Source: Clostridia bacterium
GTDB lineage: Bacteria; Bacillota; Peptococcia; DRI-13; PHAD01
Assembly: GCA_034003745.1 (NCBI GenBank)
Contig: JAVEYA010000001.1
Span: forward strand, 43 to 64,042
Length of the DNA stretch: 64,000 nt
Direction of reading: 5' to 3'
Program-made: the position numbers and the translations under genes
Shown here: piece by piece, positions 1,791-43,222 of the stretch
Position numbering within the stretch: position 1 is the stretch's first letter
Layout: each line of letters starts with the position of its first letter
Notes under the pieces: model-generated
What the model saw: only the letters and a program-made list of their open reading frames with translations
The model's database searches: none
Told to the model about the DNA's origin: nothing

Positions 1791-1907
1791 CGCTACCTCC
1801 AGCATAAAAAAATTTCCCCTTTCGGGGGAGTTACCAAGCAAATATTATATCTGATACCTGCTCAATTTTCTCCGCCGAAAGTGCACATTTTTATTATGCC
1901 GGTGACA

Positions 1908-8395: not shown

Positions 8396-8423
8396 GGAGT
8401 CGGATAATACATAAATAATCGGG

Positions 8424-9104: not shown

Positions 9105-9214
9105 CCCCTCATGAACACATTAAATACATCTATATGATATACTATTTACGTCATACATCGCAATAATGTTACTCTATTTTATTAATAGTTAAATTATATT
9201 ATACTTATCGGTAT

Positions 9215-11305: not shown

Positions 11306-12225
11306 CTTGAAGCCTCCTCTTCCTGCCTGTCTAAGCCAAGCTCCGCACGCTTTGCCTTATCCTTCAGAAGCGGAAAACCTAAGTTTTCGCGCTGCTTTAT
11401 GTATCCTTGCGCGCAGGACCGGGCCATATTTCTGACTCTGGTAATATAGCCGGTCCGTTCCGTCACGCTGATGGCGCCCCGGGCGTCCAGCAGGTTAAAG
11501 GTGTGCGAGCATTTTAAGACATAATCGTAAGCCGGCTGCACCAAACCCAGTTCAATCACGCGCAAAGCCTCTTTTTCATAGTCGTCGAAATGCTTGAACA
11601 GCATCGCTGTATCGGCTACCGTAAAATTGTAGTGGGAATAATCCACTTCTCCCTGGTGGTGGACGTCGCCATAGCTGATGCCTTCCACCCACGCAATATC
11701 ATAAACGCTCTCCTTCTCCTGAATGAACATAGCGATTCTTTCCAGGCCGTAGGTGATCTCGCCGGAAACAGGCCGGCAGTCTAGTCCCCCACACTGCTGG
11801 AAATAGGTGAACTGGGTCACTTCCATCCCGTCCAGCCAGACTTCCCAGCCCAGCCCCCATGCGCCTAAAGTGGGGGACTCCCAATTATCCTCCACAAATC
11901 TGATATCATGCTGCAAAAGATCTATCCCTAATGCTTTCAGGCTTTCCAGGTAGATTTCCTGGATATTGTCGGGGGACGGCTTTAAGATGACCTGGTATTG
12001 ATAATAGTGCTGCAAACGGTTGGGGTTTTCGCCGTAGCGTCCGTCCGTGGGACGGCGGGACGGCTCCACATAGGCGACATTCCACGGCTCCGGGCCCAGT
12101 GCCCGCAGAAAGGTGGCCGGGTTCATCGTGCCGGCGCCCTTCTCCAGATCGTACGGCTGCGTAATGATGCAGCCCCTCTTCCCCCAGAATTTGTTCAATG
12201 TTAGGATAATTTCCTGGAAATTCAT
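11302..12225 (-). CDS. glyQ: Glycine--tRNA ligase alpha subunit
   Basis: [41 protein letters not shown]. The ATG at 12225 follows AAAGGAGAGAG; the track start at 12273 lies inside the T-box terminator. Confidence 0.96.
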
Positions 12226-12239
12226 ATATCTCTCTCCTT

Positions 12240-12521
12240 TATTAAAATATATAATCCCGTCCACATGCAGCATATGCTGCAGGGACGGGATTATAATCCC
12301 GCGGTTCCACCCTGCTTGGCCGCCGGCTCATCCTCTGCCGGCCGCCCGCTTTAATATTTAATTGTCAGACTCCGGGGCGCCACAGCTCTTCCTCCCGGCC
12401 GGGCTTCCACCGTCCCCGGCTCGCTTTGTTCAGGACTCAAAAGAGACTCTCCCCTTCATTGTCTTAACACCCTTGTAATACTTTCATACATAATTTAACC
12501 TGCCTCACAGGGACTTGTCAA
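12240..12521 (-). promoter_or_regulatory. Promoter plus T-box riboswitch leader of glyQS
   Basis: Minus-strand elements:
- Promoter: TTGACA (12516-12521), 17 nt, then TTAAAT (12493-12498).
- Stem I-like GAAGGGGAGAGTC.
- T-box sequence AAGCAGGGTGGAACCGCGGGA (about 12297-12317).
- Terminator ATAATCCCGTCC...GGACGGGATTAT followed by ATATTTTAAT (12244-12294).
- A GGC triplet (..CTGTGGCGCC..) in the 3' half of stem I. Its assignment as the specifier codon is tentative. Confidence 0.85.
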
Positions 12522-12545
12522 CCGGAAAAAGGCCGTCAATTATCA

Positions 12546-12992
12546 TCAATGTTCGGGCGGTTCATCCTCTTTTCCCAGGAAGTCCAAACCGTGCTCTTCC
12601 ACTTTGCCGTCATCATAGACGATTTCCAGCCTGTAATTATTAATCAGGGCGGCTACCGTTCCCACCACGCCAATCAGCGCCAGCGGCGGAATCATAATCG
12701 CGCCGCCGATACCGAGAACACTTACGGTTGCGGACAGTTCAAAGACGACCTTATCTTCTTTTTTCAGCCGTACTTTGGTCACATTGCCCTTCTTCACCAG
12801 CTCTTTCATGTATTCATACAGTTGCTGGGTCTTTTCCTCCAGCTTGTTATCCTTTTTCCTGCTTTTCTCATTTTCCATTTCGATCAGGGTCTGCACTACA
12901 TCGCCGTTATTACGGTCCAAAGCCTCTTTGGCCTGCTGATAAGAAACATTCATCCGCTCTCTGATGGCGTCGATTTTTTTCAATTCATCCAC
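12546..12992 (-). CDS. DUF4342-type protein with an N-terminal UBA/EF-Ts-like helix bundle
   Basis: The N-terminus, IDAIRERMNVSYQQAKEALDRNNGDVVQTLIEME, is UBA-like. The C-terminus, VRLKKEDKVVFELSATVSVLGIGGAIMIPPLALIG, fits the pattern I recall for DUF4342. Confidence 0.6.
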   Translation of the reverse strand: MDELKKIDAIRERMNVSYQQAKEALDRNNGDVVQTLIEMENEKSRKKDNKLEEKTQQLYEYMKELVKKGNVTKVRLKKEDKVVFELSATVSVLGIGGAIMIPPLALIGVVGTVAALINNYRLEIVYDDGKVEEHGLDFLGKEDEPPEH

Positions 12993-13054
12993 GGCTTACA
13001 CCTCCATATCCTTACTGCTCTTACTTACTATAATATATCCCTTTTGCCGATTCG

Positions 13055-13807
13055 TCACTCATTCATTATCATTTTCATGATCGCCCGTGATTTCAGCGGG
13101 CGCTCCAGCTGTTCCAGCAAGACCTCCCCGATGGATTCTTCCAATATGCTCGAACCGCGCAGGGTAACCTTGATTCTCGCGGTTTTGGTTAAGTCCATTT
13201 TGGCTAATTGCTGCCAGACCAACAAGGCCTCCTGGGAAAAAACGCCCGGCGGATAAGGGCTTTGCACCTGCGAACAGGCTGGGCACAAGACTCCTCCTTG
13301 TCTCGCCGAAAAAAAGGGTTGCTGATCGCTTAGATCGCGGCCGCAGACCACGCACCTGTCCAGGCACGGCGCATATCCAAGGAGCGTCAACAGTTTAATT
13401 TCCATAGCCCGGACGGTCAAATCCGACGGAGACAGGCACAAGATATGAAATCCCGCCAGCGCCAGGTTGAAGACATCCGTATCCGCTTCCCCCTCTACTG
13501 TCAACGCTTCCAGGAGCTCGCTCCAGTAAGCGGCCGCCGTCATCGCCCGGATATCATCCTGCAGCGGCGTAAAGGCCTCCAGACTCTGGCTTTGGGTCAC
13601 CACATCCAGATTGCGTCCGGCGGAAAGCAGCATATCATTTTGCGTAAAGGGCTGCACGCCTCCCCTTAATTTACTCTGGGGTTTGCGCGCCCCTTTGGCA
13701 ATAGCGGGTACTTTTCCTTTTTCCCGGGTTAAAAGAGTAAGGAGGCTGTCTGCCTCCAGGTATTTTCTACTGCGTAAAATCAAAGCTTCCGTACGGTAGA
13801 GCGCCAA
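13055..13807 (-). CDS. recO: DNA repair protein RecO
   Basis: LALYRTEALILRSRKYLEADSLLTLLTREKGKVPAIAKGARKPQSKLRGGVQPF, plus a Cys4 zinc motif CVVCG...CPAC. I prefer the TTG at 13807 (GGGGTGA RBS, N-terminal length matching B. subtilis RecO) over the track start at 13858. Confidence 0.88.
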   Translation of the reverse strand: MALYRTEALILRSRKYLEADSLLTLLTREKGKVPAIAKGARKPQSKLRGGVQPFTQNDMLLSAGRNLDVVTQSQSLEAFTPLQDDIRAMTAAAYWSELLEALTVEGEADTDVFNLALAGFHILCLSPSDLTVRAMEIKLLTLLGYAPCLDRCVVCGRDLSDQQPFFSARQGGVLCPACSQVQSPYPPGVFSQEALLVWQQLAKMDLTKTARIKVTLRGSSILEESIGEVLLEQLERPLKSRAIMKMIMNE

Positions 13808-13814
13808 CTTGTCT

Positions 13815-13949
13815 TCACCCCAATTTACGCTTAAAGCGCAGCTTTCCGGCATAATCATCTGTTTCCCCGATCAGATTCTTGAATAAAAGATAGGCGCCGA
13901 TTCTGCCGGTGGAGCTAAAATAGCTCCAAAAAAATTTGTTTTTATTCAT
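13815..13949 (-). CDS. yqzL: YqzL-family small protein (44 aa)
   Basis: Not in the ORF track (under 60 aa). ATG at 13949, TGA at 13815-13817. Translation: MNKNKFFWSYFSSTGRIGAYLLFKNLIGETDDYAGKLRFKRKLG. The motif W..F..TG.I..YLLFK and the position just upstream of recO match B. subtilis yqzL. Confidence 0.7.
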   Translation of the reverse strand: MNKNKFFWSYFSSTGRIGAYLLFKNLIGETDDYAGKLRFKRKLG

Positions 13950-14029
13950 TTTGGCATCATATCCTTTCACGAAGAAAGCTTTCGTCTTCTATTATAACTG
14001 TATCAGCTAAAAACACAACTTTTGAGCCT

Positions 14030-14062
14030 TACCAAAAAAAGGCCTATTCGGCCTTTTTTGTT
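14030..14062 (-). terminator. Intrinsic terminator overlapping the deoC stop codon
   Basis: The minus strand reads AAAAAAGGCCGAATAGGCCTTTTTTTGG: a GGCC/GGCC stem with flanking A and T runs. It is bidirectional in form. Confidence 0.7.
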
Positions 14063-14718
14063 ACGATCGCAACTCCGCTGCTGGCTCCAAGTCTATCTGC
14101 TCCGGCTTGAAGGAGTTCTTCCGCTGTCTCCCGTGTCCTGATGCCGCCGGAGGCTTTAATTTTGGCCCGTCCTTTTAACGCCGCCGCCAGCAGCCGGATG
14201 TCTTGCACTGTCGCTCCGCCGCCGCCCAGGCCGGTGGACGTTTTCACATAGTCCGCTCCGGCTTTTACAACCAGTTCGCAAGCCAGAACTTTTTCCTCAT
14301 CTGTCAATAACGCTGTTTCAATAATCACTTTGAACGCGGTTCCGGGAAACTTTCGCGAAACCACCGTTACAGATCCGATTTCCCGTAGGAGATATTCCGT
14401 ATTCTTGTCTTTTAAGGCGCCGATGTTCATGACCATATCTACTTCCGCCGCGCCTTGGGCAAAGGCTTTTTCCGCTTCAAAAACTTTAGTCTCTATCAGA
14501 TTAGCTCCCAAGGGAAAGCCGATTACCGTCGCAGTCAGAACACCTGACCCCGCTAATTCCTGTCCGCATAATTCTACATAACAGGGTTGAACGCATACTG
14601 CCTTGAAGCCATATTGGCGTGCTTCAGCGCAAAGTTTTATGATCATCTCTGCAGTAGCCTCAGGCTTTAAAAGGGTATGATCGATGCGCTGAGCCAGCTC
14701 CTGATTCGTATAACCCAT
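14044..14718 (-). CDS. deoC: Deoxyribose-phosphate aldolase
   Basis: 224 aa. IDHTLLKPEAT, VCVQPCYV, and the Schiff-base lysine context VKTSTG / KASGGIRT. Confidence 0.93.
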   Translation of the reverse strand: MGYTNQELAQRIDHTLLKPEATAEMIIKLCAEARQYGFKAVCVQPCYVELCGQELAGSGVLTATVIGFPLGANLIETKVFEAEKAFAQGAAEVDMVMNIGALKDKNTEYLLREIGSVTVVSRKFPGTAFKVIIETALLTDEEKVLACELVVKAGADYVKTSTGLGGGGATVQDIRLLAAALKGRAKIKASGGIRTRETAEELLQAGADRLGASSGVAIVTKKAE

Positions 14719-14733
14719 TACAGCACCCTCGCC

Positions 14734-16101
14734 TTATATCAGATATGCGATCAAAACGGTGGCCAGGGCGGAATAAATCACCAGCCCCGTGATATCAATC
14801 GCGGTAGAGATAAAGGGAGCCGAAGCCACCGCCGGGTCAATACCGATGCGGCGGAATAAAAGCGGGACCAGGGTACCCATCGTCGCCGCCGTCAGCATAT
14901 TGCCCATCATGGCCAAACCGACCACCAGGCCCAGCATCGGCTTATGCTGCCACCACGAAGCAACCCCGCCCACAATGAGTCCCAGAATAGCCCCGATGGC
15001 CAGACCGGTCAGCGCTTCACGCAGTATAACTCTGACGATATCCTCATTCTTGATTTGCCCGGTGGCGATTCCGCGCACAGTCACCGTAGAGGATTGGGTG
15101 CCCACATTGCCGCCCATGCCGGTCAGCAAAGGAATGAAAAAGGCCAGTGCAACCACCGCGCTGATTTGACCGGAAAAGCGGCTCAGAATTTGCCCTGAAA
15201 CCAGTCCCCCCAGCATAGTGATAAAGAGCCAGGGTAATCTTGCTTTCAAAGAGGACCTGAACCGCTCAAAAAATTCCTCTTCCTCCTCACCCGCTTCGCC
15301 GGCGGCGCCGGCCAAACGGTAGATATCCTCGGAGGCCTCTTCATGGATAACGTCGATAACGTCGTCAACCGTAATAATTCCCTGCAGGGATTTTTCGCGG
15401 TCGACTACCGGTACAGCCAAAAAGTTATATTTGGCAACAATGCGGGCGACTTCTTCCTGGTCCATATCCACCGGTACGCTGACCACATTGCGGCGCATAA
15501 TCTCATGAATCAGGGATTCAGGCGCGGCAATAATCAGCTCGCGCAGCGAAATAACGCCCACCAGCTGATTCTCCACATTAATGACATAAACATAATAAAC
15601 AGTCTCCGCGTCCGGCGCCGTCTCCCGGAGCACTTCTATGGCCTTGCCCGCAGTGATGTCTTCCCGAATGGCGACATACTCATACGTCATCAAGCCGCCG
15701 GCCGTATCCTCGGGATACCGCATCAATTCGCGGACGTCTTCCTGATCGCCGCTTTCCATCAGGTCCAGATACCGGTTCTGTTCCCGGTCAGGCATCTCGG
15801 AGAGCAAATCGGCCGCGTCATCCAGCGGCATCTCTTCGAGTATTTCCAAGGCGCGCTCTTCGTTCAGTAAAGCCAACAACTCGCTGCCCAACTCCGGGTC
15901 AAGTTCATTGATAACCAGCGCGGCTGTTTCATTATCCAATAAAGTAACCAGCCAATGCTGTTCTTCGGTCTCGTACTCTTCCAACAGCTCGGCGATATCA
16001 GCCGGCTGCAGGGCAGCCAGTTCTTCCTTTACCTGCTGAGCGGCTCTTTGCGCTACGAAATCATCCAGGCGCCGGAGCAACTCTTTGTCTTCAGTGTGCA
16101 T
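14734..16101 (-). CDS. mgtE: Magnesium transporter MgtE
   Basis: It has an N-domain, tandem CBS domains, and a C-terminal membrane domain (GGNVGTQSSTVTVRG). The ATG at 16101 follows AGGAGG. Confidence 0.95.
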   Translation of the reverse strand: MHTEDKELLRRLDDFVAQRAAQQVKEELAALQPADIAELLEEYETEEQHWLVTLLDNETAALVINELDPELGSELLALLNEERALEILEEMPLDDAADLLSEMPDREQNRYLDLMESGDQEDVRELMRYPEDTAGGLMTYEYVAIREDITAGKAIEVLRETAPDAETVYYVYVINVENQLVGVISLRELIIAAPESLIHEIMRRNVVSVPVDMDQEEVARIVAKYNFLAVPVVDREKSLQGIITVDDVIDVIHEEASEDIYRLAGAAGEAGEEEEEFFERFRSSLKARLPWLFITMLGGLVSGQILSRFSGQISAVVALAFFIPLLTGMGGNVGTQSSTVTVRGIATGQIKNEDIVRVILREALTGLAIGAILGLIVGGVASWWQHKPMLGLVVGLAMMGNMLTAATMGTLVPLLFRRIGIDPAVASAPFISTAIDITGLVIYSALATVLIAYLI

Positions 16102-16454
16102 CACGCATGCTTCCTCCTTTTACGGGAAGCATAAAAAAAGTGGCGTTCCGGAATTATGCCCCCCGCTGCTATTTTTCTTCCTGAAGTTTGAACGTATGAC
16201 TACTAGGGGGGTATGCATCCACAAAAACCACCTCCGGCATATCTTCATAAAAAGCTTAATAACACAGGTTTACTCTACCAGACTTATATTTACAGTGTCA
16301 AGAAGTCCGGGTCTTTTTTTATCGGCGCTGTTACAGAAGCGCTGCCGTATTTTTAATAATATATTATCTATTTTTTCGATTTTACTTAAATATTTTTCTA
16401 CATATTTAAAATATCTTAAAACTTTTAGTCAAATGTCTTCAGCGTTCATTAAAA

Positions 16455-17627
16455 CTACCTTTCTTGAAAAATCCTGCCGCCTCTGCCTGCTTTCCGTTCC
16501 GGAAAGCGGCATAAAGCCGCGCTGAGAAGGGCCGTCGCCGGCACAGCCAAAAAAAGTCCGATACTGCCGGAAAAAGCACGGATTACCTCGCTCGCTATCG
16601 TATCCAAATTAATATATTTAAGATAGGGAATATTATTTGCCATCAAGAGCAGCATCAGGGAAAGCGAGCCGCCTGTATAAGCCAGAATCAAGGTATTGGA
16701 CATCGTGCCGATGATATCCCGTCCGATATTCAATCCGCTTCTGAATAATTGCCCAAAAGTCAGCTCCGGTTTAACACAATGGATTTCACTGAGCGCAGAA
16801 GAAATGGACATGGCTACGTCCATGACCGCGCCCAAGGAACCGATAACGATACCGGCAAAAAGAATTCCTGTAAAATCAAGCTTCCCTTCCGCATAGGTAA
16901 AGAAAAAGAGCCGTCCTTCTTCCGAGCCGAGTCCGTTTACGCGGGTCAGATAAATCATGTACTTGGCCAAAAGCCCGCCCAATACGACCCCAATGATGGT
17001 TCCGGAAATGGCTGCCAGGGATTTTTTGGTGAAGCCGGAAATCAGCATATGGGTAATAATCGTAATCAGCGCACTGACTATAACCGAGACAACAATGGGA
17101 TTTTTACCCGCCAAAATGGCAGGTAATAGTATTGTGATCACTGCCCACCCTGTAAAAATCAAAGACAGCAACGTTTTTACACCTTGCCTGTGCCCAATCA
17201 GGATAATGCATAAGGCAAATGCAACGATCAGGACATACAAGTATATTTCCCGGGAAGGGCTGGAAATATAGGCTTCCTTCAGGACAAAATCCTCCACTTC
17301 CAGGCTGAGCACAACCTCATCCCCCGTAAAAACGGAAAAATCATAGGCCGGATTACTGCCTTCATAATGAATACAGGTGACCTGACGCCCCCTGAACTCG
17401 CCTTTGCTGATTTCAACCTGCACCTCATACTGCTTTTCCTCAGGGACAAACCTTTCTTCTTCCGGAATGTCCATTTCCCGGACGCTTAGCACTTTTCCCT
17501 TGGTCAAAACTTCCGTTTCCATGTTTCCGCTGTACTGAAGATTCTCGCTATAAAAATAACCGGCTGCCAAAAGCACAATACAAATGATATAGGCAGCCGT
17601 TTTCTGCAATATTTCCCTCTTGGGCAT
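16455..17627 (-). CDS. YibE/F-family integral membrane protein
   Basis: An N-terminal anchor and extracytoplasmic domain are followed by about 7 TM segments. The overall pattern fits YibE/F. The ATG at 17627 lies 8 nt after AGGAG. Confidence 0.6.
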   Translation of the reverse strand: MPKREILQKTAAYIICIVLLAAGYFYSENLQYSGNMETEVLTKGKVLSVREMDIPEEERFVPEEKQYEVQVEISKGEFRGRQVTCIHYEGSNPAYDFSVFTGDEVVLSLEVEDFVLKEAYISSPSREIYLYVLIVAFALCIILIGHRQGVKTLLSLIFTGWAVITILLPAILAGKNPIVVSVIVSALITIITHMLISGFTKKSLAAISGTIIGVVLGGLLAKYMIYLTRVNGLGSEEGRLFFFTYAEGKLDFTGILFAGIVIGSLGAVMDVAMSISSALSEIHCVKPELTFGQLFRSGLNIGRDIIGTMSNTLILAYTGGSLSLMLLLMANNIPYLKYINLDTIASEVIRAFSGSIGLFLAVPATALLSAALCRFPERKAGRGGRIFQER

Positions 17628-17639
17628 GCTCAACACTCC

Positions 17640-18539
17640 TTATTCCCTGTACCCCAGCTCACGCAGGACAGCATCCTTGTTGCGCCAGTCGCTTTTTACC
17701 CTGACAAATAACTCCAGATAAGTTTTGCTGCCCAGGAGCCGCTCGATATCGACCCGCGCTCTCGAGCCGATTGCTTTCAGCCTTTCTCCGTTTTTGCCGA
17801 TGATGATGCCTTTTTGCGAATCTCTTTCCACATAGATGCTGGCTGCAATGTACAGCAGTTGCTCACTGCGGCGCTCTAACTGCTCTATTGTTACCGCGAC
17901 GGCATGAGGCACCTCATCACGGGTTGCCTCGATCACCTTTTCCCTGACTATTTCAGCCAAGAGGACGCTCTCCGGCTGGTCGGTGAGCGTATCCTCCGGA
18001 TAATAACGCGGACCCGGCGTCAGATATTTGAGAGCAGCCTGCAATAAAGCCGGTACATTATCGCCTTTTAAAGCGGAGAGCGGGATGATCTCCTGCCATT
18101 CACGCATGTTCCGGTAAAAGTCCATCAGCGGCAGCAGCTTTTCTTTTTCCAGCAAGTCTACCTTATTTAAAAGCAAAAAAACCGGTGTCTCCACTGTTTG
18201 CAGTTTTTCCGCAAGATAGGCGTCCCCTGAGCCAAATGGCGCCGTAACGTCCACCAGGTAAAAGACGACATCCGTTTCATTCAGCGTATTCAGAGCGAGC
18301 CTTACCATGCTGTCGCCGAGTTTGTCCTTGGGCTTATGGATACCCGGCGTGTCCAACAGGACAAGCTGGTAATCCGTTCCGTTGATGATCCCGGCAATTC
18401 TATTTCTGGTCGTCTGGGGCTTATCGGAGGTTATGGCAATCTTAGCGCCGGTCATATAATTTAAAAGCGTGGATTTTCCGGCGTTGGGCCTACCCACCAG
18501 CGCCGCGAACCCGGAACGGAATTCTTTTTCTTTCGTCAA
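17640..18539 (-). CDS. era: GTPase Era
   Basis: G1 motif GRPNAGKST, G3 motif DTPG, NKVD, and a C-terminal KH domain. Confidence 0.96.
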   Translation of the reverse strand: MTKEKEFRSGFAALVGRPNAGKSTLLNYMTGAKIAITSDKPQTTRNRIAGIINGTDYQLVLLDTPGIHKPKDKLGDSMVRLALNTLNETDVVFYLVDVTAPFGSGDAYLAEKLQTVETPVFLLLNKVDLLEKEKLLPLMDFYRNMREWQEIIPLSALKGDNVPALLQAALKYLTPGPRYYPEDTLTDQPESVLLAEIVREKVIEATRDEVPHAVAVTIEQLERRSEQLLYIAASIYVERDSQKGIIIGKNGERLKAIGSRARVDIERLLGSKTYLELFVRVKSDWRNKDAVLRELGYRE

Positions 18540-18943
18540 GCGTTTGGTCCTCCCTTGAGGAAATTTGCATCAAAATGCAGCGGCAATAATTCCCGGACTG
18601 TCGAAGCCACCACCTGACCCTTGGTATTGGCCATCAGGACACGCATTCCGGGAGAAAACTCAGCCAGTACCTGGCGGCAGCCGCCGCACGGCGAAGCAGG
18701 AATCTCTCCTTCACTGACGATGGCAATCGCCTTAAAGTTCCTGGCCCCGGCGCTCACAGCATTGAAAACTGCGGCCCGTTCAGCGCAGATAGTATGACTG
18801 TATGAAGCGTTCTCCACGTTGCAGCCGGTATAAACCTGCCCGTCTTCGGCTAAGAGCGCCGCCCCCACCTTAAAGCCGGAATAAGGCGCATATGCTTTCT
18901 CCCTGGCGGTAATGGCAGCTTCAATCAGCTTCTCATACGTCAT
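18536..18943 (-). CDS. cdd: Cytidine deaminase
   Basis: MTYEKLIEAAITAREKAYAPYSGFKVGAALL..CAERAA..PCGGCRQV zinc motifs. I chose the internal ATG at 18943, because the upstream gene ends at 18954. Confidence 0.93.
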   Translation of the reverse strand: MTYEKLIEAAITAREKAYAPYSGFKVGAALLAEDGQVYTGCNVENASYSHTICAERAAVFNAVSAGARNFKAIAIVSEGEIPASPCGGCRQVLAEFSPGMRVLMANTKGQVVASTVRELLPLHFDANFLKGGPNA

Positions 18944-18953
18944 TTCCTTCACC

Positions 18954-19988
18954 TCAATATTCAATCCGGGTCCCGTTGGGAACGACCTCAATCCAGGTCG
19001 GCCCCTCCACAAAAGAAAGGGTTTTACCCTTGGAGTCCGTATATTTGGTGAACTGGCCCGGCTGTTTTTCCCATAACCCATTGATGAATTTGCCTTCCCG
19101 GAAAATCAGCGCTTTGCCTTTACCGTGCATAATCAGACGCAGCCGGCCTTCGCCGTCCAGATACTGATAAGAGACAAATTGGATAATGATATTGGCGGCC
19201 TTAAGCTGTTCATTCTTAGCCGTCATGTGCGGCTCTTCGCCCATAAATCTTTCGAAATAGAGTTTTTCTTTATTGAACTGATAGCGAATCAGGCTGAGGC
19301 GGTTCGGATAAAAAATGGTAATATCACTGACTATCTCCCCCTCGCTCTCCTCCCCCTCCAACAAATAGGGCAGCTGGGTGGGGGGCGTAGTCAAATTATA
19401 CTGCTTATTTACAGCCGCCTTTCTAAGGCTGTCGGAACTGGAGTAAAGATTATGGGGCTTAGCCCGTTCCGTCACCCGCCAGAAAGCGGTGGCCACGTTG
19501 CTGCCGCCGTTAATCTCATCCAGATTATTCAATTTTTCCGTCTTAATGGCGTCCAGAGCATCCATGGAACCACCCGCGTGCACCAGAATAGCCTTGTATT
19601 CTTTGGCTAAATCCACAAAATAGCTGCGGGCACTACGGATAGGACCCAATAGCTCCAGGTCCTCGCCGCTGATAATCGCCAACAGTCTGGTCATCCCGCC
19701 CTCCACCGGCATTTCGATAACCACATCGGCCAATTCCAGTCCGGACTGCGGCCGGGCGGCCGCAGCATTATCAATGACCACGGCCAGGGCGCGTTGTCTG
19801 TCTTTATCCCGCCAGCCGGGGAAGGGAATAACTTTCTCGGCTGGTTCTTCTATAACTTCCGGGGGCTTAACGATATTAAAGTTTATATTCTTTTGAAAAT
19901 AAGGACGGAGAAGCACAAAGGCTGTCGAGCCGATCATGATGCTCACGGCCAGCGCCGCTAAGAGCGCGATATAATATTTGCGCCGCAT
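18954..19988 (-). CDS. DUF3048 (YerB-like) secreted/lipoprotein-type protein
   Basis: ALAVVIDNAAAARPQSGLELADVVIEMPVEGGMTRLLAI is the DUF3048 core. The start is MRRKYYIALLAAL at 19988, after AAAGGAGGA. Confidence 0.8.
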   Translation of the reverse strand: MRRKYYIALLAALAVSIMIGSTAFVLLRPYFQKNINFNIVKPPEVIEEPAEKVIPFPGWRDKDRQRALAVVIDNAAAARPQSGLELADVVIEMPVEGGMTRLLAIISGEDLELLGPIRSARSYFVDLAKEYKAILVHAGGSMDALDAIKTEKLNNLDEINGGSNVATAFWRVTERAKPHNLYSSSDSLRKAAVNKQYNLTTPPTQLPYLLEGEESEGEIVSDITIFYPNRLSLIRYQFNKEKLYFERFMGEEPHMTAKNEQLKAANIIIQFVSYQYLDGEGRLRLIMHGKGKALIFREGKFINGLWEKQPGQFTKYTDSKGKTLSFVEGPTWIEVVPNGTRIEY

Positions 19989-20031
19989 CCCCCATCCTCC
20001 TTTGGACGTGTCATTTCTATTGATCATAGTG

Positions 20032-21285
20032 TTATTCCGTTCTCCAGATATGGAGCTTGCCGATTCTCCTTCCGGTTACTTTTTCCACGACCACATGCAG
20101 ATTATCGATGTCCAGTTCCTGCCCCTCCTGCGGGAGTTTCCCCAGGTGATGAAAGACCAGCCCGCTGATGGTATCGAATTCTTCGTCCGGCAAATCCAGT
20201 TCCAACTGCTCATTGATATCATAGATGGAGGTGCGGGCGCTGACCCGTAAGGAACCGTCCTCCAATATCTCAATCAGATTCTCTTCCTTATCAAATTCAT
20301 CCTGAATATCTCCGACGATTTCCTCGATCAGGTCTTCAATCGTGACCAAGCCGGCGGTGCCGCCGTATTCATCCAAAACAATCGCCATATGCACCTTCTC
20401 TTTGCGCAGTTCCTCAAATAAATCCCGGACTTTTTTACTTTCCGGAACATAATGGGCCTGCCGCATCAAAGCCTTGATGGAAGGCCTCTTTTCCTCCGGC
20501 CTGGCCAGCGGCTGCAGGAGGTCCTTGGCATAAATCACGCCGACAATATTATCGACCGTTCCTTCATATACCGGGATCCGGGAGTGTCCGATCACCACCG
20601 CAATCTCGATGACTTCATCCAGGGTCCCTTCGGCATTCACCGCGAAAATATCGATACGCGGCACCATCACCTCGCGTACCAGCGTATCATCAAATTCAAA
20701 GATACTGTCGATCATTTCCCGCTCGTCCTCATCCAGAAGTCCTTCTTCCTGTCCGACGTTAACGAGCATCCGGATTTCTTCTTCAGTTACCTGCTGCTCC
20801 TGCTCATTCTTCCCGCCCAACAGTCTGACCAACATGCCGGTAATCAGGTTAAGAATACGCACCAGGGGATTCAGGAGGATCTGCACAACACGGATATACC
20901 CGCTGACATTCAGGGCAATCTTCTCCGGCTTCCTGGCCGTCAGCGTCTTTGGGGTGATTTCGCCAAAGACCAAGACGAGTATGGTCATTACTATCGTGGC
21001 AATTCCGGGTCCGTTTTCTTCGAAGATGCTAATGGCCAAAGAGGTGGCCAGTGCGGTTGCCCCAATATTGACAATGTTGTTGCCAACCAATATGGTGGAA
21101 ATCAAACTTCCGGGCTGTTCCAACATACGCCGCACCGCTACGGCGCGCTTATCGCCTTCTTCGGCCAGGTGCCGGATTTTTATTTTATTGGCCGCAAAGA
21201 AAGCTGTCTCTGTTGCGGAAAAAAAGGCGGACAGTATCAGCAGACAGAACAATAAAAATAAAAGGGAAGTATGCGCAATTGACAA
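20032..21285 (-). CDS. CNNM/HlyC-CorC family transporter (DUF21 + 2 CBS + CorC_HlyC)
   Basis: 417 aa. The N-terminal 4-TM DUF21 domain contains the GEITPK motif. It also has a CBS pair and a C-terminal transporter-associated domain. Confidence 0.9.
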   Translation of the reverse strand: MSIAHTSLLFLLFCLLILSAFFSATETAFFAANKIKIRHLAEEGDKRAVAVRRMLEQPGSLISTILVGNNIVNIGATALATSLAISIFEENGPGIATIVMTILVLVFGEITPKTLTARKPEKIALNVSGYIRVVQILLNPLVRILNLITGMLVRLLGGKNEQEQQVTEEEIRMLVNVGQEEGLLDEDEREMIDSIFEFDDTLVREVMVPRIDIFAVNAEGTLDEVIEIAVVIGHSRIPVYEGTVDNIVGVIYAKDLLQPLARPEEKRPSIKALMRQAHYVPESKKVRDLFEELRKEKVHMAIVLDEYGGTAGLVTIEDLIEEIVGDIQDEFDKEENLIEILEDGSLRVSARTSIYDINEQLELDLPDEEFDTISGLVFHHLGKLPQEGQELDIDNLHVVVEKVTGRRIGKLHIWRTE

Positions 21286-37458: not shown

Positions 37459-37576
37459 CAGACCTTTGCTATAATAAAGTGCGGACAAAGATGTTCTTTT
37501 TTTCGGGAATTTCTTTGTTTTTTCTTTATATTATTTCCAGGAAAATTCTGGCTTAAAAAATTGAGGAGTGATGTGG

Positions 37577-39343
37577 ATGGATGTTAAAGCGATGATGCGG
37601 GCAATGGATGTGGCCCTGGGCAAAACACCGGCGGATCTGGCCATTACCAACGCTAAATTGGTCAACGTGGCCACTCGCCGGGTGGAAGAAGCGGATATCC
37701 TGGTTGCGGAAGGTATCATCGCGGCGATTCAGGAGCGCGGCAGTGCAAAAAAAGGCGCCGCCACACAGGAACTGGACGCAGGCGGCAGGTATCTTCTGCC
37801 CGGACTGCTGGACGCCCATACCCATATCGAGATGTCTTTTTTATCGGCCGTACCGTACGCTGAGTGCGTCTTACCCCTCGGCACGACGGGTATTATGGTC
37901 GATCCTCATGACATGGTGAACGCCACCGGCCTGGAAGGGCTCCGGCATTTTGCCGCAGAAATGGCTTCCACACCCCTTAAATGCTACCTGATGGTTCCCC
38001 CCTGTATTCCTTCTTCGCCGGATTTGGAAGACGCCGCTATCAATATGACCCTCCAAGACATGAAGAAAGCCTTCAATCTGCCCAGCGCCCACGGCATTGC
38101 GGAAACCATGGACTTTTCCCGGGTGCTGGCCCAAGAGCAGGAGCTCCTCCATATCCTGTCCTGGTCCCGTGAACAGAACCTTCTGGTGGACGGGCACTGC
38201 CCGGAATTGCGGGGGCGTGCCCTGCAGGCCTATGCCCTGACCGGTCCGGTTCTCACCGACCATGAATCCGTGACCGTTGAGGAAATGCAGGAGAAATACC
38301 GTCTGGGTATGCGGGTGATTATTCGCCGGGGTTCTTTGAGCGAATCCGCCTCCGCCGGCGACTTTGTCAATTCCCTGGCTGATACCAGCAATGTCCTGCT
38401 CTCCACCGACGGCTGCATTACCGTTCATGATATCCTCACCAAAGGCCATATGAACTATGCCCTGCGCTGCGTAGTGGAGGAAGGCGTCGACCCGCTGGTC
38501 GCCGTACAGATGGGCACCATCAACGTCGCCCGGGCCTATGGACTTTCCCATCGGGTCGGAATCATCGCGCCCGGCCGCGCCGCCGATCTGGTCCTCGTCA
38601 ATAATCTGCATGAATTCAAGGTGGAGGCTGCATACCTTAACGGCCGGCGCCTTCCTGCGCCCGGGAAGTACCAACTACCGCGCTATGCGTATCCCCAGCA
38701 GGTTCTGGAAACGGTGAAGCTGAAGGAAGTCGCCGCAGAGGCCTTCCGTATTAAAACGCCTGCAGCCGGCGGTATGGTAAAAGTACGCGCTATCGCCATC
38801 ATCGACGAAACCGTAGCCACAGCCGAGGAAATACATGAAATGCAGGCTGTGGGCGGCGAACTGCAGATTGACCCCTCCCGTGACTTACTCAAAGCGGCGG
38901 TCTTCGAAAGATATGGCCGCGCCGGAACCCACGCTACGGCCATAGTCAAAGGCTTTGGCCTGAAGAAAGGAGCTCTGGCCGGCAGTGTGGCCCAGGACAC
39001 ACAAAACATCGTCGCAGTGGGCGCTTCAGATGAAGATATGGCTTTGGCCGTCAATACCCTCAAAAAACAGCATGGCGGCATCGTCCTGGCCGAGGGAGGA
39101 AAAATTTTGGCCAATATCAAACTCCCCATCGGCGGTATCATGACCGACATCCCGCCTGAACAACTGCAGACTGCCATGGCCGACTTGAACCAAAAAGCGA
39201 AAGCCCTGGGCAGTACGCTTACCGACCCCATTTTTTCCTTATATATGCAAATTGCGCTGGCAGTTATCCCGGAAATACGCCTGACCAACCGCGGCCTGGT
39301 TCATGTCGCTTCGGCACAGTTTATCCCCTTATGGATAGATTAA
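37577..39343 (+). CDS. ade: Adenine deaminase
   Basis: DLAITNAKLVNVATRRVEEADILVAEGIIAAI ... LLPGLLDAHTHIEMS, an amidohydrolase fold about 590 aa long. The start is uncertain (37568 / 37571 / 37577). 37577 has the best spacing from GAGGAG. Confidence 0.9.
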   Translation: MDVKAMMRAMDVALGKTPADLAITNAKLVNVATRRVEEADILVAEGIIAAIQERGSAKKGAATQELDAGGRYLLPGLLDAHTHIEMSFLSAVPYAECVLPLGTTGIMVDPHDMVNATGLEGLRHFAAEMASTPLKCYLMVPPCIPSSPDLEDAAINMTLQDMKKAFNLPSAHGIAETMDFSRVLAQEQELLHILSWSREQNLLVDGHCPELRGRALQAYALTGPVLTDHESVTVEEMQEKYRLGMRVIIRRGSLSESASAGDFVNSLADTSNVLLSTDGCITVHDILTKGHMNYALRCVVEEGVDPLVAVQMGTINVARAYGLSHRVGIIAPGRAADLVLVNNLHEFKVEAAYLNGRRLPAPGKYQLPRYAYPQQVLETVKLKEVAAEAFRIKTPAAGGMVKVRAIAIIDETVATAEEIHEMQAVGGELQIDPSRDLLKAAVFERYGRAGTHATAIVKGFGLKKGALAGSVAQDTQNIVAVGASDEDMALAVNTLKKQHGGIVLAEGGKILANIKLPIGGIMTDIPPEQLQTAMADLNQKAKALGSTLTDPIFSLYMQIALAVIPEIRLTNRGLVHVASAQFIPLWID

Positions 39344-39376: not shown

Positions 39377-40441
39377 TTGTTGGATTTACAGGATATCTTA
39401 AGTATTATTGGCGCCTTATTTGACGCCATTGCCTCTGGTTTAGTGGCCTTATACTATGGTTTTGCAGCGTTCCCGTCCGGGCTGGCCTTCGTGGTCGGCG
39501 TCATCGGAGCGCTGGCCTTCGGCCTGGTTACCCCCATTTCTTTTCAGGCGGAAACCCTCGTCCTCGTAGGCGGTCTGGGTAAGAACATCAAGGAACGGTT
39601 ATCCATTGTTATCTTAGCCGGCATCATGATGGGCATTTTAGGCGCCTTCGGTTTTCTGGGAGCCGTCCTTGATTTTATCGGTGAGGATATCCTGTCCGGC
39701 ATGCTGGCAGGGGTAGGCATCATTCTGGCCCGCGCCGGCCTGACCCTGATGAAGGAACATTATCCTTCCGGCATCGTGTCTATGATTGTAGCGCTCAGCG
39801 TCTTCTTCTTTCATGGGGATTTGGCCTACATGATTGCCGCTTCCATCCTGGCCGGCACCGCTGTCTATGTTTTCATGACCAAAGGCCGGACGAATGCCGG
39901 GCTGCAGGATTTAGACCCTGTCTTAACCGCCCGCAAACTAAACTTTACCAAGCCGATCTTCAACAATTGGGGCGTCTGGCGCGCCGCTTTGGCCGTCTGC
40001 ACTCTGCAGATAGGGGCTAACATCAGTTACGGCACTATCACCGGACAGATTGCCAACCATCCCGTCGATATCGACAAGCTGACCGTGGTCTCGGCCCTGG
40101 CCGATTTTGTCAGCGCCCTCTTCGGCGGCGCCCCCATGGAATCCATCATTGCCGTTACAGCCACCGGGACACATCCGGTAACTGCCGGTATCATCTTTAT
40201 GGCAATCATGGCCGTCATTCTCTTAAGCGGGCTCCTGCCCAAACTGGCCCGCTGGATCCCCATCAGTTCCACCTCCGGCTACTTGTTTGTATTGGGCGCC
40301 GTCCTGGTGGTTCCTGACAACATGGCTGCCGCTGTAGGGGGAAATCCGCTGGTCGGCAGCATTACCGCAGTCGTTACGGCCATTTCCGATCCTTTCATCG
40401 GCATGCTGGCCGGTATTATTGTGAGGATGATTACGGGATGA
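39377..40441 (+). CDS. Polytopic membrane protein, putative nucleobase permease (function inferred from context only)
   Basis: 354 aa with about 10 hydrophobic segments. TTG start, 7 nt after GGAGAGGTG. It sits between adenine deaminase and a PRTase, and its stop overlaps the PRTase ATG. I could not assign it to a family with confidence. Confidence 0.55.
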   Translation: MLDLQDILSIIGALFDAIASGLVALYYGFAAFPSGLAFVVGVIGALAFGLVTPISFQAETLVLVGGLGKNIKERLSIVILAGIMMGILGAFGFLGAVLDFIGEDILSGMLAGVGIILARAGLTLMKEHYPSGIVSMIVALSVFFFHGDLAYMIAASILAGTAVYVFMTKGRTNAGLQDLDPVLTARKLNFTKPIFNNWGVWRAALAVCTLQIGANISYGTITGQIANHPVDIDKLTVVSALADFVSALFGGAPMESIIAVTATGTHPVTAGIIFMAIMAVILLSGLLPKLARWIPISSTSGYLFVLGAVLVVPDNMAAAVGGNPLVGSITAVVTAISDPFIGMLAGIIVRMITG

Positions 40442-40983
40442 GCAGATTTTATATGCTGGAGATAGCCGGACTAAAAAGAGAACTGCCGGTTATCCCCATC
40501 AGTGAGAATTTATCTATCGCCAGCTTTGTTATCCTGGGTGATACGGAACTGGTCTGCGCGGCGGCGCCCCTGCTGGCCGCAAAGCTGCCGCCTGTGGACC
40601 TTTTGGTCACGGCCGAAGCTAAGGGCATCCCCCTTGTCTTCGAGCTTTCCCGTCTGTTGAACTTAAAGCAGTACATTGTCGCCCGCAAAAGCGTCAAACC
40701 CTACATGGAAGAACCTTTGATCGACCAAGTGATTTCTATCACCACACAAAAAAAGCAGACGCTATGCCTGGACCGTAAAGACGCCCGCGAGATCGCCGGA
40801 AAAAGAGTCGCTATCATCGATGATGTTATCAGCACCGGTGAATCCATTGAGGCAGTGGGCCGGCTGGTCAAAGAAGCCGGCGGCAAAGTAGCGGCCAAAG
40901 CGGCCATCCTGGCCGAAGGCGACGCCGCGAAAAGAGACGATATCCTCTTCCTGCAGGCGCTCCCGGTGTTTCCGCATTCTTGA
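40438..40983 (+). CDS. Type I phosphoribosyltransferase (adenine/purine PRT-like)
   Basis: PRPP-binding motif VAIIDDVISTGESI; 181 aa. ATGA overlap with the permease gene. Confidence 0.8.
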   Translation: MSRFYMLEIAGLKRELPVIPISENLSIASFVILGDTELVCAAAPLLAAKLPPVDLLVTAEAKGIPLVFELSRLLNLKQYIVARKSVKPYMEEPLIDQVISITTQKKQTLCLDRKDAREIAGKRVAIIDDVISTGESIEAVGRLVKEAGGKVAAKAAILAEGDAAKRDDILFLQALPVFPHS

Positions 40984-41028
40984 ATAATACAGGATTATAG
41001 GTTAATTTTTAAAAAGTAGGTGACGCAT

Positions 41029-41223
41029 ATGAGTACAGTTTACTATTGCCCCGAATGCCGCAATGAACTCGAAGAAATATCCGGCTGCGGCTCCGTAAGT
41101 TATTTTTGCCATACCTGCAAAAAGCTGATTTCCCGCAAGCAAATCATAACCAAAGAAGAAGCGCAAACAGCCGGGGCTGAACAGAGCGGCCCCGATAAAA
41201 CAGGTAAAGAACAGTCGTCCTAA
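41029..41223 (+). CDS. Small double-CxxC zinc-ribbon protein (YfgJ/DUF1407-like)
   Basis: MSTVYYCPECRNELEEISGCGSVSYFCHTCKKLISRKQI. The ATG at 41029 follows AGGTGA. Confidence 0.6.
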   Translation: MSTVYYCPECRNELEEISGCGSVSYFCHTCKKLISRKQIITKEEAQTAGAEQSGPDKTGKEQSS

Positions 41224-41328
41224 GTTTTCCCTAGTTATATTGTATACTTAAGAATTTACCCTTGCATAACCCGGATAACGTGCTACAATATCACTAAGTT
41301 TAGATAATTGAATAACCAATCGTCAAGA

Positions 41329-41418
41329 GATTACAATGATGTTTTCTCTGATTTCGGCGAAAAGCTGATGATGGAAACAAAGACGTTTTCTTCCGCAAGG
41401 GGAAAATGTCTTTTTTTT
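41329..41418 (+). promoter_or_regulatory. amtB-glnK leader: strong intrinsic terminator with overlapping alternative hairpin (transcription attenuator)
   Basis: The terminator pairs GACGTTTTCTTC (41382-41393) with GGGGAAAATGTC (41399-41410), followed by T8 (41411-41418), 36 nt before the amtB ATG. The hairpin GGAAAC-AAAGAC-GTTTTC (41373-41390) uses the 5' arm of the terminator. A related 18-nt unit, GATTAC-AATGAT-GTTTTC, lies at 41329-41346. Confidence 0.7.
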
Positions 41419-41454
41419 ATTTAAATAACTTATTAAACAAAGGAGGAAAAAAAG

Positions 41455-42822
41455 ATGGACTTTCAAGTAATGATTGACACTATGTGGGTATTGATCGCCG
41501 GTTTTTTGGTCTTTTTTATGAATCTTGGCTTCGCCTGCGTGGAAAGCGGTTTCGCCAGATCTAAGAACACAGTAAACATTTTATCCAAAAACTTTATCGT
41601 CTTTGCAGTATCGTCGCTGGGCTTCCTGCTCTTAGGCTGGGGCATTATGTTCGGTGACGGCGGCGGATTTATGGGTACTTCCGGCCTGTTCTTCGTAAGC
41701 GGCGCCGATAACTCTCCCGCCATCGGAGACGCTTATCAGGGCGTGTACTCCGCAATTGGCTGGACCGGCATTCCGCTATGGGCCAAATTCTTCTTCCAGC
41801 TGGTGTTCTGCGGGACGGCCGCCACCATCGTCTCCGGAGCAGTGGCGGAACGTGTTAAGTACATCTCCTTTATTGTCTTTTCATTTGTCCTGACCTTAAT
41901 CATTTATCCCATCGTGGGCCATTGGATTTGGGGCGGCGGCTTCCTGGCGGACTTAGGCATGTGGGACTTCGCAGGCGGCACCGTAGTTCACTCCGTCGGC
42001 GGATGGGCAGCATTAGCCGGCATTATTGTTCTGGGTCCCCGGGTTGGTAAATATACCAAAGACGGAAAAATTCATCCTATCCCCGGTCACAGTATGGCTC
42101 TGGCTACCATAGGCGGTTTCATCCTCTGGCTCGGCTGGTTCGGATTCAACCCCGGCTCCACCATGGGTCTGGCGGATCCCGGCGCGGTCGCCCACATCGT
42201 TATAACCACGAATACCGCGGGTATTGTCGCCGTCTTAACTGCTACCGCTACTTCCTGGATTATCATCGGTAAGCCCGACCTCGGCATGTCCATCAACGGC
42301 TTGCTCGCCGGCTTGGTAGCGATCACTCCCTGCTGCGCTTTCGTCAGCGTTCCCAGTTCCCTGATTATCGGCGCAATTGCCGGTATCGTCGTAGTACTCT
42401 CCGTCATGGCTTTCGACCGCGCCAAGCTGGACGACCCGGTCGGCGCCACCTCCGTTCACCTGGTCTGCGGCGTAATGGGCACGATTATGGTCGGCCTCTT
42501 TGCAGAAAATGGCATCACCGGCGCTGCTACCGGCAACGGACTCTTCTTCGGCGGCGGAACTACCCTTTTAATTGCCCAGGTTATCGGTGTAATCGCTGCA
42601 GGGGCGTTTGTCTTTATCTCTTCTTTCATCGTTTGGAATATTATTAAGGTCGTCCTGGGCGCCCGGGTTCCGCTCAGCGAAGAAATTGCCGGCCTGGATA
42701 TCGGCGAACACGGTAACTCCGCTTATCCTGACTTCATGACTCAGAGGGTCTCCTACGCTCTGATTTCCAAGGATATTAACGTCACTGCGGTAGAATCTGC
42801 AAAGGGGGTTAAAGCGTTATGA
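41455..42822 (+). CDS. amtB: Ammonium transporter
   Basis: 455 aa, Amt/MEP family (FACVESGFARSKN, VVHSVGGWAALAG, GFNPGS). Confidence 0.95.
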   Translation: MDFQVMIDTMWVLIAGFLVFFMNLGFACVESGFARSKNTVNILSKNFIVFAVSSLGFLLLGWGIMFGDGGGFMGTSGLFFVSGADNSPAIGDAYQGVYSAIGWTGIPLWAKFFFQLVFCGTAATIVSGAVAERVKYISFIVFSFVLTLIIYPIVGHWIWGGGFLADLGMWDFAGGTVVHSVGGWAALAGIIVLGPRVGKYTKDGKIHPIPGHSMALATIGGFILWLGWFGFNPGSTMGLADPGAVAHIVITTNTAGIVAVLTATATSWIIIGKPDLGMSINGLLAGLVAITPCCAFVSVPSSLIIGAIAGIVVVLSVMAFDRAKLDDPVGATSVHLVCGVMGTIMVGLFAENGITGAATGNGLFFGGGTTLLIAQVIGVIAAGAFVFISSFIVWNIIKVVLGARVPLSEEIAGLDIGEHGNSAYPDFMTQRVSYALISKDINVTAVESAKGVKAL

Positions 42823-43160
42823 AACATATCAAAGCCGTAATCAAACCGGAAAAACTTTCCGATGTGCGTGACGCGTTAGAAAATCTAGGCTGCTATGGCG
42901 GCGCCATGATTACCGATATTATGGGCCAGGGTACGCAAAAAGGGATCACCCAGGCCTGGCGCGGCGAGAAATTCCAAATGGACCTGCTGCCCAAAGTATC
43001 CGTCGACATAATCGTTAAAGACGAAGACGCGGAAAGCGTGAAAAAAGCCATTCTGGAAAGCGCCTGCACAGGCTCCATCGGCGACGGCAAAATCTTTGTT
43101 TATAACGTAGAAGAAGTTATCAGAATCAGAACCGGCGAAAAAGACGACAAAGCAATCTAA
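42819..43160 (+). CDS. glnK: P-II nitrogen regulatory protein (GlnK type)
   Basis: MKHIKAVIKPEKLSDVRDALENLG...TGSIGDGKIFVYNVEEVIRIRTGE. ATGA overlap with amtB. The T-loop reads GQGTQKGITQAWRGEKFQMDL; Phe sits at the position of E. coli Tyr51. Confidence 0.93.
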   Translation: MKHIKAVIKPEKLSDVRDALENLGCYGGAMITDIMGQGTQKGITQAWRGEKFQMDLLPKVSVDIIVKDEDAESVKKAILESACTGSIGDGKIFVYNVEEVIRIRTGEKDDKAI

Positions 43161-43185: not shown

Positions 43186-43222
43186 GAAAACTGCCCGGTT
43201 CAAATGCCGGGCAGTTTCTTTC
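43186..43222. terminator. Bidirectional terminator between the convergent glnK and feo operons
   Basis: AAACTGCCCGG (43186-43196) pairs with CCGGGCAGTTT (43205-43215). The stem is flanked by an A-rich run upstream and a T-rich run downstream. Confidence 0.85.

Follow-up and report, generated by a model that had tools for sequence, protein, structure and literature searches.

In the 64,000-nucleotide stretch of the Clostridia bacterium contig JAVEYA010000001.1 analysed here (the window), an ammonium-transporter gene, amtB, and a P-II gene, glnK, are preceded by a leader that carries a putative transcription attenuator of the ANTAR type. The amtB gene (41455-42822, plus strand) matches Pfam Ammonium_transp at 5e-115 and scores above the cut-off of NCBIfam TIGR00836 amt. 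It overlaps by 4 nt the glnK/P-II gene (42819-43160, plus strand; Pfam P-II, 8e-27), which is followed by a terminator-like site at 43188-43217 in a terminator scan. The same scan recovers the terminator of the amtB leader, with 15 pairs. A zinc-ribbon open reading frame (ORF; 41020-41223, plus strand), encoding a 67-residue double zinc-ribbon protein (Pfam Zn_ribbon_6), lies between an adenine phosphoribosyltransferase (PRTase)-like gene and the amtB leader. The argument below turns on the following features.

41262 to 41289, plus strand: probable promoter of the amtB-glnK leader, read from the sequence, with a -35-like TTGCAT (41262-67), a 16-nt spacer and an extended -10 TGcTACAAT (41281-89)
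41370 to 41393, plus strand: HP2, the putative antiterminator hairpin GAUGGAAAC-AAAGAC-GUUUUCUUC, with core GGAAAC-AAAGAC-GUUUUC at 41373-41390 and hexaloop at 41379-41384
41379 to 41418, plus strand: intrinsic terminator, with a stem from 41379/41382 to 41410/41413 that includes G-U wobbles, loop GCAA and U8 at 41411-41418
41455 to 43160, plus strand: operon amtB-glnK (Pfam, NCBIfam), proposed as the regulated operon

An earlier reading of this DNA from its letters and ORFs (the sequence-only reading) had placed a terminator with G-U wobbles and a T8 run 36 nt 5' of amtB. Its coordinates and sequence are correct: the T8 run ends 36 nt 5' of the amtB ATG at 41455, the structure folds at -15.8 kcal/mol (z -4.1), and none of 200 shuffles was equally stable. 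The alternative pairing of the GTTTTC terminator arm with GGAAAC around the loop AAAGAC (41373-41390) is also present as that reading had described it. The resulting hairpin, HP2, has six contiguous pairs in its core and eight of nine possible pairs in its extended form (41370-41393), and in isolation it is weak (-4.5 kcal/mol, z -1.5). Its hexaloop has A at position 1 and G at position 4 (A1/G4) and is closed by a C-G pair (C41378-G41385). The loop starts 76 nt 5' of the amtB ATG, and the U-tract begins 32 nt past the loop start. Positions 41379-41393 are common to HP2, where they form the loop and the 3' arm, and to the terminator, where they form the 5' arm, and the two structures are mutually exclusive. 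We propose HP2, from its sequence and fold, as the binding site of an ANTAR-type regulator.

This arrangement is rare by chance. Each site in a strict scan had to have a closing C-G pair, a loop of the form RAHGRN, four or more bp, a T-run and a terminator that draws on the loop bases. The window has two such sites (41379 and 37487), and 60 dinucleotide shuffles have none.

A family of hairpin-terminator units

AmtB-based scans of species-representative genomes and metagenomes yielded 160 loci, with top identities of 80% (genomes) and 77% (metagenomes), and the top AmtB relatives are mostly from Bacillota or Clostridia metagenome-assembled genomes (MAGs). A search for the identical AmtB returned no record. 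Since the window leader is not alignable base by base with that of any relative, motifs were compared instead. The unit that recurs has a 3-6 bp stem, a C-G pair that closes the loop, and a hexaloop of the form R-A-W-G-R-N (most commonly AAAGGC, AAAGGU, AAAGAU or AAUGGC), in which the loop and the 3' arm form the 5' half, or base, of an intrinsic terminator whose U-tract starts 28-42 nt past the loop start. Strict units number 53 in the 160 loci, and 39 of these fall within 350 nt 5' of amtB, a space that makes up 1.5% of the searched sequence. Such amtB-leader units occur in 32 of 155 related loci, and in most relatives the amtB-proximal unit lies 73-86 nt 5' of the ATG. HP2 and its terminator share with this family the closing pair, the loop, the stem, the terminator base, the distance to the U-tract and the position in the amtB leader.

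The conserved unit is tied to nitrogen-assimilation genes beyond amtB as well. Units outside amtB leaders precede genes for type III glutamine synthetase (GS-III; L009 and L048), the large subunit of glutamate synthase, gltB (L038), as well as glnA and a second amtB-glnK pair (both in L048) and ANTAR regulator genes. Tandem arrays of two to four copies, each with its own terminator, are common, with three units in L001, L005 and L063 and two in L006, L007, L010, L022, L025, L027 and L082. The three serial units 5' of amtB in L001 (9619-9850), L005 (9802-9940) and L063 (9792-9930) have the form GAC-RAWGRA-GUC and make an unusually deep terminator stack.

Two tests indicate that the hairpin of this family is real. 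In a flank-blind test, terminators beginning with RAHGRN were found first, and the 5' flank was ignored in detection. At least three contiguous closing pairs were nonetheless present in 44 of the 147 terminators so found, as against 12 expected from permuted flanks and 6-10 from flanks slid by 1-3 nt, and at least four pairs were present in 31 as against 5 expected. In an ungapped alignment of 46 units (alignment A1), stem pair 4, which played no part in selection, is formed in 70% of units, with six pair types represented, and its covariation score is 0.49 as against 0.24 in shuffles and at most 0.18 for slid partners. A hairpin-only covariance model of the family, R1, built without the window, also gives HP2 as its top window match (41372-41391, 17.8 bits, E 0.006). 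R1 is too short to be specific alone, and its window matches at 60240, 10213 and 34027 lie within or antisense to coding sequence and have no terminator. Detection of hairpins and terminators in all loci regardless of the loop was noisy, with similar counts for loop lengths 4-8, and was not used as a test of the A1/G4 rule; only the loops AAAGGC, AAAGGT and AATGGC recur in it.

These results bear on the alternative that the terminator is an ordinary unregulated one, for example at the end of the upstream adenine deaminase operon, with the hairpins before it due to chance. The terminator does sit 155 nt past the stop of the zinc-ribbon ORF (41223), and HP2 alone is not significantly stable (z -1.5). 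Against this, the combination of hairpin and terminator recurs at the same distance from amtB in dozens of otherwise unalignable leaders, its stem covaries, the strict scan finds no such site in its 60 shuffles, and the element is separated from the upstream ORF by a promoter-like extended -10. We consider an ordinary terminator very improbable.

The nitrogen-gene context would also suit nitrogen sensing by a small-molecule riboswitch or by a leader-peptide attenuator, and the leader holds a ten-codon ORF, MMFSLISAKS (41337-41369, plus strand), which begins in the loop of an upstream hairpin (HP1, described below) and stops just 5' of HP2. Nevertheless, Rfam gives nothing at gathering scores for the whole window, glutamine riboswitches included, and at E<=10 on 41150-41500 it gives only chance matches (Yfr19 at 27.8 bits against a gathering score of 70, PyrR and others). 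The conserved part, a stem of 4-5 bp and six loop bases, could hardly accommodate a ligand pocket because of its small size. As for the ORF, there is no convincing ribosome-binding site, its codons include no regulatory run, the relatives do not show it, and it is probably meaningless. On these grounds, the absence of an Rfam match, the small conserved core and the unconvincing ORF, we rejected both the riboswitch and the leader-peptide readings, which we regard as barely credible.

ANTAR regulators as proposed binders

ANTAR proteins act as antiterminators that recognise A1/G4 hexaloops, and their dimers contact these loops one at a time (PMC8934654). The predicted targets are mostly in nitrogen metabolism, and they include matches before ammonium-transporter and P-II genes of Clostridium thermocellum and Desulfotomaculum acetoxidans (Ramesh et al. 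2012, Table S2, PMC3369931). According to work cited in PMC6316151, the response-regulator-ANTAR protein NitR induces genes for glutamine synthetase and glutamate synthase (GS/GOGAT) by antitermination under nitrogen limitation in Clostridium saccharobutylicum.

Among the related loci, the units lie beside ANTAR genes. Pfam-confirmed ANTAR genes (PF03861) adjoin units in L048, L112 and L134, which have glnA-ANTAR clusters of the Bacillota type, and in L012, L062, L092, L121, L135 and L137, and these loci come from several phyla. The proteins are of the GAF-ANTAR type in L012, L092 and L121 and of the response-regulator-ANTAR type in L062, L135 and L137. L048 comes from a Bacillota MAG, and its AmtB shares 75% identity with that of the window. 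Here a unit precedes glnA and a response-regulator-ANTAR gene, and the arms of the unit, GGAAAC/GUUUCU, are nearly those of HP2. In L112 and L134 the order is glnA, response-regulator-ANTAR, amtB and glnK.

Two of these loci show further arrangements. L048 carries a nitrogen island at 7395-20234. Its minus strand holds the unit with glnA and the response-regulator-ANTAR gene, and another unit followed by amtB2 and glnK2; its plus strand holds amtB-glnK, gatA/gatB-like genes and a unit before a type III glutamine synthetase gene, and the main amtB (9983) has no clean unit. In L012 (6040-6170), a promoter and two serial units, AGAC-AAUGAU-GUCU and GGAC-CGUGAC-GUCC, come after a GAF-ANTAR gene, and the second unit has C at loop position 1. 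The gene past both units encodes an N-terminus that resembles, by appearance, glutamine-dependent NAD synthetase.

We consider it likely, from sequence comparison, that the amtB-glnK leader acts as a protein-dependent transcription attenuator of the ANTAR type with HP2 as its core. The ANTAR-like terminator/antiterminator of the sequence-only reading is upheld to this extent, for HP2 and its terminator, by the occurrence of the family before nitrogen genes and beside ANTAR genes and by the precedent in Table S2; the dual-hairpin architecture that it also envisaged is not. In the proposed mechanism, transcription would probably start near 41296, and by default the terminator at 41379-41418 would form, polymerase would stop in the U8 tract and amtB-glnK would remain off. 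Under nitrogen limitation, which we infer to be the signal, an activated ANTAR regulator would bind the hexaloop AAAGAC and the closing C-G pair of HP2. In this genome the binder would be a NitR-like response regulator encoded outside the window. The closed HP2 would sequester 41379-41393 from the 3' arm of the terminator, and polymerase would read through into amtB-glnK.

Switches of this type have been described before, and the amtB-glnK leader adds another example. For the window itself, regulation of this kind is expected and no surprise; it does offer a concrete, testable control mechanism for ammonium uptake in a Clostridia lineage that is uncultured or poorly sampled. The targets of EutV (Enterococcus faecalis eut), NasR (Klebsiella nasF), AmiR (Pseudomonas amiE) and NasT (NalA) similarly have an A1/G4 hexaloop, a conserved closing pair and a short stem (PMC3369931, PMC8934654, PMC10783516). 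In those systems, too, the hairpin and an intrinsic terminator exclude each other, read-through follows protein binding and the genes serve nitrogen supply. They differ in having two required hairpins 5-12 nt apart, whereas the conserved unit here is a single one, with a second candidate in the window that is imperfect and 20-26 nt off. They differ also in that the family loop itself, besides the 3' arm, joins the terminator stem, and in that about 25% of the family loops begin with G.

Three systems offer closer parallels in taxonomy or gene content. Control of glnA and gltAB by NitR in Clostridium saccharobutylicum and C. acetobutylicum, as outlined in PMC6316151 and PMC4676874, likewise concerns Clostridia and nitrogen genes, and the glnA-ANTAR pair of L048, L112 and L134 has the same arrangement. 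The window differs in that it has no glnA-nitR cluster and in that the target is amtB-glnK (with the adenine deaminase operon) rather than glnA or gltAB, and the likeness concerns the genes. The sites of Ramesh et al. 2012 (Cthe_1499, and 13 attenuators in six transcription units of D. acetoxidans) share with the present leader the amtB/P-II context, the phylum, the overlap with a terminator and the use of multiple attenuators per transcription unit. Those sites come from a dual-hairpin model, whereas the unit in the relatives here is single, and the window organism lies outside their genome set. Finally, GnfR of Geobacter sulfurreducens is an ANTAR response regulator that relieves terminators 5' of nitrogen genes under nitrogen limitation (PMC2995071). 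It belongs to another phylum and another regulatory cascade, and this likeness concerns the regulator and the genes.

Several observations weigh against assigning the leader to an ANTAR regulator. The window, which is the part of the genome that was searched, has no ANTAR gene, as the sequence-only reading had already remarked: none is found by Pfam on 20 ORFs, by a hidden Markov model (HMM) of 12 ANTAR domains from the loci run against six-frame ORFs, or by tblastn with an approximate ANTAR consensus. Most unit-bearing Bacillota loci have no ANTAR gene within 5-10 kb, and the ANTAR link rests on a minority of loci. EutV, NasR and NasT need two closely spaced hexaloops for antitermination, and the family here has one. 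Loop position 1 is G in about 25% of strict units (GAUGGC, GAAGGC, GACGGC and others), a departure from the ANTAR A1 rule. The search of Rfam for an ANTAR-target model, which the sequence-only reading had put forward as a check, gave no relevant match; no ANTAR-target family was among the matches, so this last result says little about the ANTAR assignment.

The same points could suggest that the switch is as described and that its hexaloop is read by a non-ANTAR RNA-binding factor, perhaps an undescribed nitrogen regulator of this Clostridia lineage. This would account for the missing ANTAR genes, in the window and within 5-10 kb in most unit-bearing Bacillota loci, and for a unit that departs from the canonical target in its single hexaloop and its G1 in about a quarter of cases. 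However, units directly adjoin ANTAR genes in at least nine loci from several phyla, L048, L112 and L134 among them, and regulator genes may be unlinked to their targets. To our knowledge, moreover, no other known antiterminator family reads a hexaloop with G4 (the targets of LicT/SacY, PyrR, HutP, TRAP and GlpP being those considered), which counts against such a binder. We judge a non-ANTAR binder improbable and retain an ANTAR regulator as the proposed partner of HP2.

The upstream hairpin and the dual-site model

Upstream of HP2, the leader holds two further hairpins.

41326 to 41349, plus strand: HP1, AGAGAUUAC-AAUGAU-GUUUUCUCU, with core GAUUAC-AAUGAU-GUUUUC at 41329-41346 and hexaloop at 41335-40
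41354 to 41368, plus strand: small linker hairpin UCGGC-GAAAA-GCUGA (-5.4 kcal/mol, z -3.0), present in the minimum free energy (MFE) structure of the whole leader

The sequence-only reading had described an 18-nt paralogous unit, GATTAC-AATGAT-GTTTTC, at 41329-41346, with A1 and G4 in both loops, and this is correct; the 18-nt units of HP1 and HP2 agree at 13 of 18 positions. Its two reservations, about a 2x2 internal mismatch and a 26-nt spacing, also hold in the sequence. HP1 has an A1/G4 hexaloop and a closing C-G pair, with two pairs beside the loop, a 2x2 U-U internal loop and then five pairs, and it folds at -6.7 kcal/mol (z -2.8); stems of ANTAR targets have three or more base pairs each. 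The linker between HP1 and HP2 is 26 nt between core stems and 20 nt between extended stems. Neither the leader sequence nor its folds give HP1 a terminator of its own.

These features raise the alternative of a canonical dual-hairpin ANTAR site, in which HP1 (as the first hairpin, P1) and HP2 (as the second, P2) would both be required and would be read together or successively by one ANTAR dimer. The resemblance of the two hairpins in loop, closing pair and 18-nt sequence agrees with this. HP1-like sites, defined by the loop consensus and at least seven of nine flanking pairs, number 9 in the window as against 3.2 in shuffles (per 128 kb), and for such a site to fall on the correct strand in the 85 nt or so 5' of HP2 the chance is roughly 0.002, a post hoc estimate. 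The HP1 loop AAUGAU is identical to loops of units that adjoin ANTAR genes in L112 and L134, where it is the P1 loop, and in L012. The amtB leaders of L112 (4860-5000) and L134 (4790-4870) contain a true dual site, CCU-AAUGAU-AGG followed after 7-9 nt by AAC-AAUGGC-GGU and a terminator, the second stem having an A-G mismatch. In the window, the linker hairpin could draw the two loops nearer. There is also an alternative pairing of GUUUUC 41341-46 with GGAAAC 41373-78 (-8.8 kcal/mol), available when HP1 is unformed, which would block HP2; HP1 formation could free GGAAAC from this partner, so HP1 could promote HP2.

The spacing speaks against a dual site. With EutV, linkers of 5-12 nt work, and function is lost with a linker of 3 or 14 nt and with a 20-nt extension (PMC3369931, PMC8934654), whereas the linker here is 20-26 nt. 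HP1 has only two contiguous loop-side pairs and is not recovered by R1 at E<=10. In relatives, a second hexaloop is not enriched either upstream of the units (11 of 62 units as against 7.5 expected) or inside the terminator (3 as against 2.8 expected), and in L009, L022, L025 and L038 the unit begins at most 15 nt past the -10 box and leaves no room for a P1. Finally, a promoter-like match, TTGAAT-18-TACAAT at 41308-41337 (plus strand; promoter scan), overlaps HP1, its -10 falling within the 5' arm and loop. This promoter, if used, would start the transcript at about 41344, and HP1 would then be absent from the RNA. We prefer, from the sequence, the extended -10 TGcTACAAT (41281-89), with a start inferred at about 41296, as the promoter of the leader; its TGCTAYAAT form is common to the promoter of the adenine deaminase unit. 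The consensus promoter scan does not list the promoter at 41262-41289, whose -35 matches at only three of six positions.

On these four grounds (a linker outside 5-12 nt, an HP1 missed by R1, no second-hexaloop enrichment in relatives and the promoter-like overlap) the dual hairpin proposed by the sequence-only reading is not borne out as the functional unit, and we regard a required dual site as unlikely. In our favoured reading HP2 by itself makes up the functional core, and HP1 would be at most accessory. HP1 may be a degenerate upstream member of a tandem series, an additional docking site or a structural aid to the release of the 5' arm of HP2.

A broader generalization, which we offer tentatively as a possibility, is that single-hexaloop ANTAR attenuators, often two to four independent ones in series, are used for nitrogen assimilation in this Clostridia lineage and in several phyla. 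In the literature searched, we found no described single-hexaloop nitrogen attenuator in Clostridia. If the generalization is true, the closely spaced dual hexaloop of EutV, NasR and NasT is not a general requirement of ANTAR antitermination, and HP1 would be a decayed copy or a helper. These nitrogen leaders seem as a rule to have one hexaloop per terminator, which makes them a useful counter-example to the dual-hexaloop model, and such a rule could improve searches for ANTAR targets, which now require two hairpins. A different layout was seen in the glnA leader of L112, where UGC-AGGGAC-GUA is directly followed by CUC-AAUGAA-GAG and the second hairpin lies within the terminator loop.

A second unit before the adenine deaminase operon

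The other site of the strict scan (37487) belongs to a second unit of the family in the window.

37466 to 37525, plus strand: second family unit, with an extended -10 TGCTATAAT at 37466-74, hairpin GGAC-AAAGAU-GUUC at 37483-96 and a terminator at 37483-37520 followed by a U-tract

This unit folds at -12.9 kcal/mol (z -4.2), is matched by R1 at 13.7 bits (E 0.18) and has its U-tract 31 nt past the loop start. Its extended -10 has the TGCTAYAAT form, as in the amtB leader. Downstream lie genes for an adenine deaminase (37568-39343), a permease-like protein (39377-40441) and the adenine PRTase-like protein (40438-40983), as identified by Pfam and NCBIfam, which plausibly constitute a nitrogen-scavenging operon. 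The same switch would precede this operon (37483-37525), and the unit suggests, by its sequence, that purine deamination is placed in the same nitrogen regulon as amtB-glnK. If so, the adenine deaminase operon becomes a regulon member alongside ammonium uptake.

Elsewhere in the window, near its start, a transposase-like ORF (1894-2628, minus strand) encodes an integrase core domain (rve) and helix-turn-helix (HTH) domains.

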